Shown here piece by piece: positions 3,515-10,598 of a stretch of 13,813 bases of DNA. Each line of letters begins with the position of its first letter. Positions within the stretch are counted from its first letter, which is position 1. The translations under genes and the position numbers were made by a program. Below the pieces are notes generated by a model. The model made no database searches, was not told the origin of the DNA, and worked only from the letters and a program-made list of their open reading frames with translations. Source of the stretch: Octopus sinensis (lineage: Eukaryota); the NCBI RefSeq assembly GCF_006345805.1, contig NW_021826049.1:1-13813 (forward strand), read 5' to 3'.

Positions 3515-3913
3515 TACTCTTTTACTTTTTTCAGTCATTTGCCTGTGGCCATGCTGGAGCACCGCCTTTAAGTCGAGCAATTCCACCCAGGACTTATTCT
3601 TTGTAAGCCAAGTACTTATTCTATTGGTCTCTTTTGCTGAACCGCTATGTTACGGTGACGTAAACACACCAGTGTTAAGCGATGTTGGGGGGACAAACAT
3701 AGATACACAAACATATACACACACATATATATATATAATATACATATATACGACGGGATTCTTTCAGTTTCCGCCTACCACATCCACTCACAAGGCTTTA
3801 GTTGACCCGAGGCTATAGTAAAAGACACTTGCCCAAGGTGCCACGCAGTGGGACTGAACCCGGAACCATATGGTTGGTAAAACAAGCTACTTACCACACA
3901 GCCACTCCTACGC
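3515..3913 (-). mobile_element. tRNA-derived SINE family C with internal (CA)/(TA) microsatellite
   Basis: Collinear with 5638-6052. Minus strand has A box tggctgtgtgg, B box ggttcagtccc, a CORE-like accttgggcaagtg and an aaaagagta tail. Possible degenerate TSD aaagaatat/aaagaaaatat (3507-3515, 3914-3924). Confidence 0.88.
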
Positions 3914-5175: not shown

Positions 5176-5275
5176 ATACATACATACAAACATACATACA
5201 TACATACATACATACATACATACATACATACATACATACATACATACTTACATACATACATGCATACATACATAT
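5176..5275. repeat. (TACA)n microsatellite
   Basis: Seen directly. Confidence 0.95.
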
Positions 5276-5421
5276 ATCGGTCCACCAACGCACATATCTC
5301 TATGAGATATTTAGAAATTTAATATTTCTGATTTTGGTGATCAATGAATAAACTTCACTGAAAATATATATATATAATTACGAAGTCTAGACAGAAATCT
5401 TCAGCTAGCAGGCCTTGCTAC

Positions 5422-5467
5422 TCTAGACTGATGATGGGCAAGCCCCTGAAACATGCGTGTCTCTAGA
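5422..5467 (+). ncRNA. Type I hammerhead ribozyme, intact core, GUC cleavage triplet
   Basis: tctaga (stem I) CTGATGA (5428-5434) tgggcaagcccct (stem II) GAAA (5448-5451) cat-gc-gtg (stem III) TC, then tctaga (stem I partner). Predicted cut after 5461. Confidence 0.85.
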
Positions 5468-5637
5468 TGCAGGCCTAGATGTTGGGGGTGTTTGTCTCCC
5501 CTTCGTAAATATATAAGGTCTCAGGAAATGTGTCAAGGCCGACAAGAAGCGTCGATGCTTCCTAGGGCTAAACAGCGGTGAGGTAATTCCCTTTATGGGA
5601 CTGTCACGTTAAGTTGACAGTATACAACCACTATATA

Positions 5638-5847
5638 TACTCTTTACTCTTTTACTTGTTTCAGTCATTTGACTGCGACCATGCTGGAGCACTGCCTTTA
5701 GTCGAGCAAATCGACACCGGGACTTATTCTTTGTAAGCCCAGTACTTATTCTATCGGTCTCTTTTGCCGAACCGCTAGGTGACGGGGACGTAAACACACA
5801 AGCATCGGTTGTCAAGCAATGCTAGGGGGACAAACACAGAGACACAA

Positions 5848-5880
<33 letters not shown>

Positions 5881-6052
5881 CATATATACGACAGGCTTCT
5901 TTCAGTTTCCGTCTACCAAATCCACTCACAAGGCATTGGTCGGCCCGGGGCTATAGCAGAAGACACTTGCCCAAGTTGCCACGCAGTGGGACTGAACCCG
6001 GAACCCATGGTTTGGTTAGCAAGCTACTTACCACACAGCCACTCCTGCGCCT
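5638..6052 (-). mobile_element. tRNA-derived SINE family C, full length
   Basis: Collinear with 3515-3913, with internal microsatellite 5845-5888, tail (aagagt)x2 on the minus strand, and ctatatata on both sides (5631-5639, 6051-6059). Confidence 0.9.
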
Positions 6053-7061: not shown

Positions 7062-7157
7062 TATTGCTTATATACATATACATTCGTAAATACATACATG
7101 TAAATATATATACATATATGTATATATATATATATATTATATATATATATATATATG
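6670..7157. repeat. Compound (TA)n-rich microsatellite
   Basis: Seen directly. Confidence 0.9.
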
Positions 7158-7176
7158 TTACATTACTCGGTAGTCA

Positions 7177-7239
7177 AGATAAAACTCTGAGTTTCAGATG
7201 CCGAAGTGGAAATCCACAACACCATCTCTTCGGTTATCT
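7177..7239 (-). ncRNA. Variant minimal type I hammerhead in PLE pLTR
   Basis: Minus strand agataa CCGAAGA gatggtgttgtggatttccacttcggcatc t GAAA ctc-a-gag TT ttatct: 6-bp stem I, long stem II, GUU triplet, core U4 replaced by C. Confidence 0.65.
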
Positions 7240-7430
7240 GGCTATTTGAAAACGTTATGAAAAAATACCGTTAAAAATGAAGGGAAATTACTCTGTTATA
7301 ACTCTGCTTTGCCTGCGTACTTATACATCGCTCGCATTTTTCGTCATAAAATTATATAAAAATACATAAAATAGATAAAAATATTAAAATATATAAAATC
7401 TTCTTGGGACATAACACAGAAAGCATGTTT

Positions 7431-8075
7431 CTATCCGTTTTCTTTAGGGACCAAAAACGTAACAGAAATTTAGTCCACATGTGGGCATGATCCGAAAGCT
7501 CTGTCCTTGTATTTAGACATGTGGTAGGGTCTAAGCTGCTTTTCCAGATAAGCCATCTCTCCATGTCGCATAAACCGCACCTTCCGCTGCCGTTAGTAAG
7601 GGCTTACATCTGGCCAAAATCTTCCATTGTATGTTTAATCGACACCTTTATCTCTTAAAGACCAAATATTATTGGATAATTGTGCCGCTTTTCTTTTGTT
7701 CCAGTGCCTAAAGCTCAAAGTGTGGTTATTGAACCTGGCCTTGAAATTACCCTCTGTCAGGCCACGTATTTCTTCGTCGAAACGGTGTCTTTAGTGGTTA
7801 TAGAGTTTACGGTAGCTTCATATATGATGGTCTTGGGACATGCACTCCATTAGCGGGCACAATTCTTTATTCCTGCATGAACAGCTGTTTTCTTCTTGTG
7901 TTTTTTGTATGTTATGATTGATTATGTTTTTAAAATTGGTAGTTGAACTAAAACTAATTTTTAAATTGTGTCTATTGAAGAGTTTCCTATAAGCATGGTT
8001 AACTGGAAAATGTCTATCTATCAGTGCTAGGAAATATTTACCTATATTGAAGGCCACCTCGGGTGAGTAAGGGGG
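7431..8075 (-). pseudogene. Frameshifted PLE ORF C-terminus: linker, Cys motif and GIY-YIG endonuclease (Naiad-like)
   Basis: Joining frames gives PPYSPEVAFNIGKYFLALIDRHFP..KLFNRHNLKISFS..CSCRNKELCPL..C..KTIIYEATV..KKYVGLTEGNFKARFNNH..WKILARCKPYTNGSGRCGLCDMERWLI..LNTRTEL(F)GSCPH. Several single-base indels must be corrected. Confidence 0.85.
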
Positions 8076-8260
8076 CCAGATGTAAGCCCTATACTAACGG
8101 CAGCGGAAGGTGCGGTTTATGCGACATGGAGAGATGGCTTATCTGGAAAAGCAGCTTAGACCCTACCACATGTCTAAATACAAGGACAGAGCTTTTCGGA
8201 TCATGCCCACATGTGACTAAATTGCTGTTACGTTTTTGGTCCCCTAAAGAAAACGGATAG
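8074..8260 (+). pseudogene. Inverted duplicate of the PLE endonuclease C-terminus
   Basis: ORF 8063..8260 contains ARCKPYTNGSGRCGLCDMERWLIWKSSLDPTTCLNTRTELFGSCPHVTKLLLRFWSPKENG*. Confidence 0.85.
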
Positions 8261-8452
8261 AACATGCTTTCTGTGTTATGTCCCAAGAAGATTTTATATA
8301 TTTTTTATATATTTATATATTTTTATGTATTTTTATATAATTTTTATGACGAAAAATGCGAGCGATGTATAAGTACGCAGGCAAAGCAGAGTTATAACAG
8401 AGTAATTTCCCTTCATTTTTACGGTATTTTTTCATAACGTTTTCAAATAGCC

Positions 8453-8514
8453 AGATAACCGAAGAGATGGTGTTGTGGATATCCACTTCGGCATCTGAAA
8501 CTCAGATTTTATCT
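8453..8514 (+). ncRNA. Second copy of the variant hammerhead, missing one G in stem III
   Basis: agataa CCGAAGA gatggtgttgtggatatccacttcggcatc t GAAA ctcaga ttttatct. Differs from the left copy by a 1-nt deletion (ctcagagtttt vs ctcagatttt) and one loop II base. Confidence 0.55.
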
Positions 8515-8613
8515 TGACTACCGAGTAATGTAAATATTGTATATAGATAATTTCCTCTATTTACATAATATTGAGGTCTCTTTCTTTCTTTTGTTTATCT
8601 TACCGTTTTATCA

Positions 8614-8701
8614 ATATATATATATATATATATAATATATATATGATATATATATATATATATATATATGTACATATATATATATGTAATATCTATGTAT
8701 G

Positions 8702-9665: not shown

Positions 9666-9703
9666 TGTTATATACCTGTTGTAATTTAGTCATCCATAGT
9701 CTG

Positions 9704-9740
9704 ATATGACGTTTCGGAATATTATTCCTTCTTCAGATAT
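9704..9740 (-). ncRNA. Minimal type I hammerhead (GAAACGUC type)
   Basis: Minus strand atat CTGAAGA a-ggaata-a-tattcc GAAA CGTC atat, with outer pairing ccat/atgg (9694-9697, 9747-9750). Same strand as, and 3' of, the GIY-YIG remnant at 10300-10556. Confidence 0.75.
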
Positions 9741-9884
9741 TCGTAGATGGAGACGCTGCTATAATCGGTTTTCTAACGGCTTTTTCTTTTTTATTTTTGG
9801 GAAGCATCTCAGCAGTGGTCTCACGAGGCTCCTTCCGGAATTCCTCATGAGAAGTGTGTGAGGTCACAATCTCGTGTGAGCTGG

Positions 9885-10169
9885 TACTATGTTACATATT
9901 ATATGTTACATATTATATGTTACATACTATGTTACATATTATATGTTACATATTATATGTTACATACTATGTTACATATTATATGTTACATATTATATGT
10001 TACATACTATGTTACATATTATATGTTACATATTATATGTTACATACTATGTTACATATTATATGTTACATACTATGTTACATATTATATGTTACATATT
10101 ATATGTTACATACTATGTTACATATTATATGCTACATATTATATGTTACATACTATGTTACATATTATA
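9885..10169. repeat. Minisatellite of 12-bp (A, tactatgttaca) and 14-bp (B, tattatatgttaca) units with 40-bp ABB period
   Basis: Parsed as ABB ABB ABB ABB AB ABB AB'B A plus a partial B. One substitution (gctaca) in the whole array. Confidence 0.95.
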
Positions 10170-10299
10170 CGTGCGGCATCCTTTTTTCCTTCATTTTTTC
10201 CCTTCTTTTCTTTTTTTTTTGTTATAAACTGCAGATGATATTTATCAATAATATATATACACGCATCCAGATGTATCTAAATAATGTATTGATTACTAA

Positions 10300-10556
10300 T
10301 CTTCAGCCTATTGTTAATTTGGGGACCTAGGTCTGTGTATGAGTATAGCTTCCTTTATTCTTAAAATACCCAAATTTCTTTCATTGGACTCAATTGTGAC
10401 TGTTATGCTTTTGTCGGTGTTCCCACATCTGTCTAGATGTTTTCTGAAGGAGGAAGCTCTCCTGTTCAGATATTCTATGATGCCGACGTGTAACAGTCTT
10501 GTTGTGCTACTCACATAGAACTTGTTGCATTTGTTACATTGTATTCTATACACAAC
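10300..10556 (-). pseudogene. Decayed GIY-YIG endonuclease of a second PLE family
   Basis: VVYRIQCNKCNKFYVSSTTRLLH..EY..SSFRKHLDRC..LRIKEAILI, then PQINNR after a frameshift. CxxC lies between the GIY and YIG halves, unlike the 7431-8075 protein. Conserved G, R and H appear mutated. Confidence 0.8.
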
Positions 10557-10598
10557 CGTCGGCGTGTTCGTTTTCTATTGGACTTTCCTCTGTTTCTT

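Follow-up and report, generated by a model that had tools for sequence, protein, structure and literature searches.

The window, a stretch of 13,813 nucleotides of Octopus sinensis DNA (assembly GCF_006345805.1, contig NW_021826049.1, forward strand), holds a protein-free repeat unit with a predicted hammerhead ribozyme, a coding Penelope-like element (PLE) insertion and an older PLE remnant. The features are as follows.

5275-5632, + strand: nearly full repeat unit (about 356 of 359 nt), starting just past site A and ending at site A, delimited by homology to other copies.
5422-5467, + strand: minimal type I hammerhead, from motif positions read in the sequence and a covariation alignment.
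5378-5508, + strand: long helix rich in G-U pairs and lying within the element; it continues hammerhead stem I outwards and closes over the cut site.
5451-5460, + strand: near-palindromic stem III, with predicted pairing between two copies of -12.5 kcal/mol and no hairpin alone.
5600-5632, + strand: hairpin (5600-5606/5615-5621) followed by an AC-rich stretch to end A, the putative start of reverse transcription.
5275-5332, + strand: "tail" segment between ends A and B, with two short AT-rich predicted hairpins (5294-5310 and 5313-5329).
7139-8619: young coding PLE insertion, head-to-head inverted, with ends A and B of its own, in (TA)n; 8,935 family candidates.
9697-9736 and 10314-10574, - strand: older PLE family remnant (GIY-YIG piece and CTGAAGA hammerhead), split by a minisatellite of 40-bp period at ~9845-10250.

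The hammerhead core is complete, as the sequence-only reading had claimed: CTGATGA lies at 5428-5434, GAAA at 5448-5451 and GTC at 5459-5461, which places the predicted cut after C5461. Stem I is formed by TCTAGA/TCTAGA (5422-27/5462-67) and stem II by GGG/CCC (5436-38/5444-46). The latter comprises only 3 bp and carries one extra unpaired base per side, a position that is unpaired in 33 of 43 aligned copies. Beyond stem I, the four outer helices described earlier (5410-5418/5469-5476, 5397-5405/5481-5489, 5389-5395/5491-5497 and 5378-5385/5501-5508) were all found, together with the four G-U pairs ascribed to the second of them. Both strands were folded and compared to shuffled sequences. The predicted + strand fold (-54.7 kcal/mol, z -4.63) was equalled by 0 of 200 shuffles, whereas that of the - strand was weaker relative to its shuffles (z -2.90; 4 of 200 equally good). 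The minimum free energy structure (-22.1 kcal/mol) keeps stem I and misses the catalytic core; a fold that forms the core (-18.1 kcal/mol) is approximately 4 kcal/mol costlier. A loose hammerhead core pattern gave four matches at two distinct sites in the window, compared to a shuffled mean of 0.36. The hammerhead family was absent among the Rfam matches listed for the window at E up to 1 and from those for the 359-bp unit at E up to 10; the matches that were obtained, to miRNA models, were driven by microsatellites and were set aside.

The element had been thought an orphan bounded by TA runs, and neither view stands. A 131-bp query against the 2.72-Gb genome returned 1,356 candidates, 40 of which were scored and gave 45 matches of 91-96% identity (the window itself excluded). 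An internal hairpin 20-mer has 1,274 exact occurrences (its reversed control has none) and a hammerhead 18-mer has 166, these copy numbers being lower bounds that count arms and not insertions. The family is dispersed. Homology to other copies spans ~5275-5632, with the TA runs (5370-77 and 5509-16) lying inside the element. Many copies continue from 5636 into 5275, and on this basis we define the unit as circularly permuted with a period of 359 bp. The window copy (L001) runs from unit position 174 round to 170 and is 93% identical to L027; it is a monomer in a TA/TACA-rich site, where a target-site duplication (TSD) is not resolvable. Most copies are shorter than one unit, and although those of about one unit in length seem over-represented, alignment breaks in older subfamilies could account for this. 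The longest stop-free frame in the tripled unit is 59 codons, and a search for a tRNA-like head, as in tRNA-derived SINEs, yielded no tRNA call and no Rfam tRNA match. Fragments of the family, and of a sister family described below, are present in assembled contigs from five distinct runs that we guess to be RNA; ends, strand and circles are not readable from such contigs. Directly 3' of the element (~5635-6050) is an abundant repeat that we take to be SINE-like, with a second window copy at 3630-3900.

If the helices act in RNA, then substitutions on one side should be matched on the other. In an alignment of 43 copies drawn from across subfamilies, 24 of 42 pairs had changed on both sides, compared to 11.6 +/- 2.0 for shuffles and 10-15 for slid controls, although such counts are inflated by relatedness among copies and some alignment rows include flank. 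Overall, 86% of alignment cells are paired. One pair in stem I is C-G in 25 copies and U-A in 14; one in stem II is A-U in 24 and G-C in 15. Many swaps, of G-U to A-U or G-C, hold on the + strand. Together these data suggest that the RNA structure of the repeat is under selection.

Stem III could be parsed in 86 of 94 unique copies. In 49 it is a perfect palindrome, represented by three sequences (13, 8 and 28 copies), a further 28 are of the window type, with one change that permits G-U pairing, and the remaining nine are other variants. The sister family and a third relative add two more palindromes. Pairing between two copies is predicted for each of the five stem III words, at -4.6 to -13.3 kcal/mol, and a solitary hairpin for none, behaviour described for hammerheads that cleave as dimers (PMC4209133). 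The earlier proposal of a near-palindromic, dimer-type stem III is thereby borne out for predicted pairing and for palindromy across variants, and its retention in five sequence forms is as expected were the RNA to cleave as a dimer. The core variant U4C, which reduces hammerhead activity in vitro (PMC3088659), is found in 24 of the 94 copies, and minimal PLE-type hammerheads are reported to cleave poorly (PMC4209133).

Numbering the unit from the predicted cut, copies have variable 5' ends and two fixed 3' ends, A at ~170-172 (window 5632) and B at ~229 (window 5332), which are 58 nt apart and each directly follow short hairpins. For end statistics we used loci chosen by the internal 20-mer alone (L061-L147, three duplicates dropped); the first 60 loci were left out because they had been picked by best score. 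Head-to-head arrangements account for 37 of 88 insertions. Both ends could be classed in 25 of these, comprising 24 A+B, one B+B and no A+A, an excess of A+B over that expected of independent ends (P 7e-7); the other 12 have an unclassed end. Among the 51 insertions of one orientation, 43 end at A or B. TSDs were sought in 31 A+B insertions, 10 of which lie in microsatellites and were set aside. A TSD of at least 7 bp was present in 15 of the remaining 21, compared to 7 of 420 mismatched flank pairs; the median length is 9 bp and target sites are 80% AT. Such ends, inversions and TSDs make up the PLE tail signature. The suggestion that the locus holds a small non-autonomous ribozyme retroelement is accordingly upheld in kind, by the 359-bp period, the lack of an ORF, the retrotransposition-type ends and the TSDs, and is wrong as to size, the element being about 2.7 times longer than supposed. 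At one inversion junction (L047:1366-1500) element pieces form a 27-bp microsatellite-like array, suggestive of repeated template switching.

Coding PLEs share the genome. The family of the insertion at 7139-8619 has ends at ~+35 and ~+104, with six of seven inverted loci clearly A+B and one ambiguous; it includes 717-aa ORFs (L175, L177) bearing the Hydra-clade motifs RWK, DKT and CxCX5C, and the core of its pLTR hammerhead reads CCGAAGA (U4C). A second young ORF, of 781 aa, is labelled Neptune-type on the basis of motif likeness, and both ORFs are near-intact. An older family is, by inference, Poseidon-type. A search for a helper took in 74 PLE/GIY-YIG loci (L151-L186, L212-L249) from the top-scoring families only. 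Neither BLASTN nor local alignment detected DNA similarity of the 359-bp unit, or of the 351-bp sister unit, to the Hydra-, Poseidon- or Neptune-type loci. Matches to the unit in L185/L187, L238 and L246 proved to be separate insertions of sister families and were rejected as a link to a helper. At L219, L228, L232 and L234, Neptune-type pLTRs with the variant core TTGATAA (U3/A8) and a palindromic stem III lie 3' of GIY-YIG.

The sister family was sampled at the following loci.

L185:3690-4400 (- strand), L187-L211 and L250-L279: 351-bp hammerhead unit; a very young subfamily with tandems and (TA)n targets.

The two units are colinear over their full length (global score 221, compared to 116 +/- 10 for shuffles), and a 20-mer of the sister has 545 exact matches in the genome. 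Members of the young subfamily are 97-100% identical and occur in tandems of up to about four units; head-to-tail repeats with at least two hammerheads are rare in the 359-bp family. A first sample was biased because the query included TA flank, and the family was resampled by internal pattern. Sister copies end at 173 and at 216-219, seven of the eight inverted insertions among 22 chosen by pattern are A+B, and all six young insertions among the 22 lie in (TA)n. A third relative (L238:45-416), 73% identical to the sister, is an inverted A+B insertion with core CTGATAA and a palindromic stem III.

Were cleaved linear monomers the usual template, arms should not pass the cut. Among 105 arms that end at A or B, 43 cross it, eight stop within 12 nt and 54 fall short. 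Stops in the 50-nt windows on either side number 17 and 22, and an accumulation of 5' ends at the cut site, sought as a trace of cleavage in vivo, was not seen among the 105. Some arms exceed one unit (697, 515, 509 and 475 nt), the longest of which (L106) is the only one of the 105 to cross the cut twice. Because arms read through the cut, and reach 697 nt, a cleaved linear monomer cannot be the usual template. The template is a circle or an uncleaved multimer, and the DNA fits both.

We consider it highly probable that the element is one copy of a dispersed, protein-free repeat of 359 bp, the RNA of which likely cleaves itself as a hammerhead dimer and the copies of which are likely inserted by the enzyme of a coding PLE. 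As judged from genomic sequence, the data support its assignment as a non-LTR retrozyme, or non-autonomous PLE, of a large dispersed family with PLE-specific insertion marks. Multimeric transcripts would be cut into monomers by paired hammerheads and ligated into circles. The RT/GIY-YIG protein of a PLE would bind the hairpins that lie 140-230 nt beyond the cut and would nick both strands of AT-rich DNA approximately 9 bp apart. From each nick cDNA would be primed at a different internal start, A or B, and the two cDNAs would join head-to-head, or one would be lost.

Three other explanations deserve attention. Hairpins near ends and TA targets are also found in DNA elements, and the repeat might be a satellite, MITE or Helitron-like sequence in which the hammerhead is incidental. 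We regard this as scarcely credible given the variable 5' truncation, the two 3' ends, TSDs of ~9 bp, the lack of terminal inverted repeats and the covariation of G-U pairs on the + strand. Little more probable, in our estimation, is that an ordinary coding PLE is the source of the copies, as its solo or truncated pLTRs. The pattern of tails, inversions and TSDs is indeed that of coding PLEs, and a search with five natural PLE proteins found ORF fragments in 11 of 150 loci. Two of these (L019 and L072) have a co-oriented ORF piece immediately upstream, yet in both the unit has inserted into an old PLE remnant, and L072 shows a TSD. In none of the sampled copies does the unit follow on from a PLE ORF, in agreement with the earlier remark that none is adjacent, so that the refuting case named with that remark, an ordinary solo pLTR, does not hold for them. 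The 5' flanks (of arms starting at position >=160 or <=30) hold no shared ORF end. Moreover, copies read from site B back into their own unit with a 359-bp period, leaving no room for an ORF.

A more serious contender, which we nevertheless think doubtful, is a non-autonomous PLE copied only from uncleaved linear multimers of tandem source loci, with no circle and with a hammerhead that is weak or has some other role. Arms cross the cut freely, U4C is common, and PLE TPRT proceeds in vitro without need for cleavage, unprocessed RNA being the main substrate (PMC11167929). Against this, core, stems and dimer palindrome have been kept in families that are only ~60-73% identical, which implies selection for cleavage, and closure of the long helix over the cut site would suit a circle. 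The sister family provides further data: units within one tandem differ by a mean of 2.2 mismatches (6 pairs), compared to 4.7 between insertions (181 pairs), the pairs being few and non-independent.

The class of element is itself already known. Animal non-LTR retrozymes consist of tandem non-coding units with type I hammerheads; they are expressed as circles, and use of PLEs has been proposed for them (PMC7229834). A preprint (Li et al. 2026, 10.64898/2026.07.22.740005) argues from co-occurrence and from resemblance to pLTRs, across 35 genomes (31 of vertebrates, three of insects and one of an anthozoan), that retrozymes are PLE derivatives of a non-autonomous kind; one of nine Xenopus retrozyme dimers tested there cleaved. 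The octopus unit resembles these in its similar size (mussel repeats are 350-390 bp; Cervera and de la Pena 2020, PMC7229834), non-coding nature, type I hammerhead, short palindromic stem III, head-to-tail periodicity and the presence of PLEs in the genome. It departs from classic tandem retrozymes in that copies are mostly dispersed and of one unit or less, with few tandems. It also has no sequence similarity to any sampled PLE. For the octopus family, the fixed double 3' ends, inversions and TSDs have been measured; in the portions of the retrozyme papers available to us, the PLE link is one of co-occurrence, pLTR similarity or hypothesis. Among titles and the opening lines of abstracts we found nothing on a cephalopod retrozyme, or on tail or TSD statistics for a retrozyme (Repbase/Dfam or supplements may catalogue the family), and the word "ribozyme" is absent from the main text of a 2026 octopus repeat annotation (PMC13282606).

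Insertions of EN+ PLEs have a 5' copy in inverted orientation and, at one end only, a tail of 30-40 bp (Craig 2021, PMC8557442), with TSDs of 8-10 bp (Arkhipova 2013, PMC3846280). A PLE protein assayed in vitro nicks AT-rich DNA on both strands, and the two internal sites at which it starts reverse transcription define the tail, cleavage being dispensable (Frangieh 2024, PMC11167929). The octopus copies share with EN+ PLEs the 5' truncation, partial tandems, inverted 5' arm, one-end tail, 8-10-bp TSD, targets that are AT-rich or (TA)n, a start site with an AC-rich stem-loop and a hammerhead upstream of the start. They differ in lacking an ORF, in a tail of 58 nt in place of 30-40, and in having starts 171 and 229 nt downstream of the cut. 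The non-autonomous Chlamys PLEs, MRC1 among them (Craig 2021), are likewise pLTR-forming and inserted head-to-tail. Their 3' ends generally resemble those of their autonomous family, whereas for the octopus unit no similar autonomous family was found among sampled loci; hammerheads are missing from most Chlamys. With the minimal hammerheads of PLEs (Cervera and de la Pena 2014, PMC4209133) the unit shares the conserved core, the palindromic stem III and an extra base between positions 9 and 10.1. Its stem II is 3 bp, compared to 7-8 bp in those of schistosomes, with a second extra base before G12, and its stem I, unlike theirs, extends into a helix of ~40 bp.

It is an open issue in the field what enzyme mobilises animal retrozymes and whether their template is a circle. 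Here a retrozyme-type unit itself bears the PLE integration signature, with statistics. A young sister family (97-100% identity) and two candidate helper ORFs (717-aa Hydra-type and 781-aa Neptune-type) share one genome, so the question is directly testable by the published in vitro TPRT assay. A bolder reading, which we offer tentatively, is that an old lineage of ORF-less RNA circles of ~355 nt, with at least three colinear families ~60-73% identical and one still spreading, has diverged from any PLE. PLE enzymes would then recognise RNA structure alone, and the helper would have changed over time (AT-rich unique targets here, strict (TA)n in the young sister subfamily). If true, the genome itself would directly prove that PLE priming, at two sites and on two strands, inserts retrozyme circles. 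An unrelated 477-bp tandem at L176 (~330-1780), made up of three copies and one inverted arm, contains a type I hammerhead whose stem III is near-palindromic; this tandem appears to be another retrozyme-like family.
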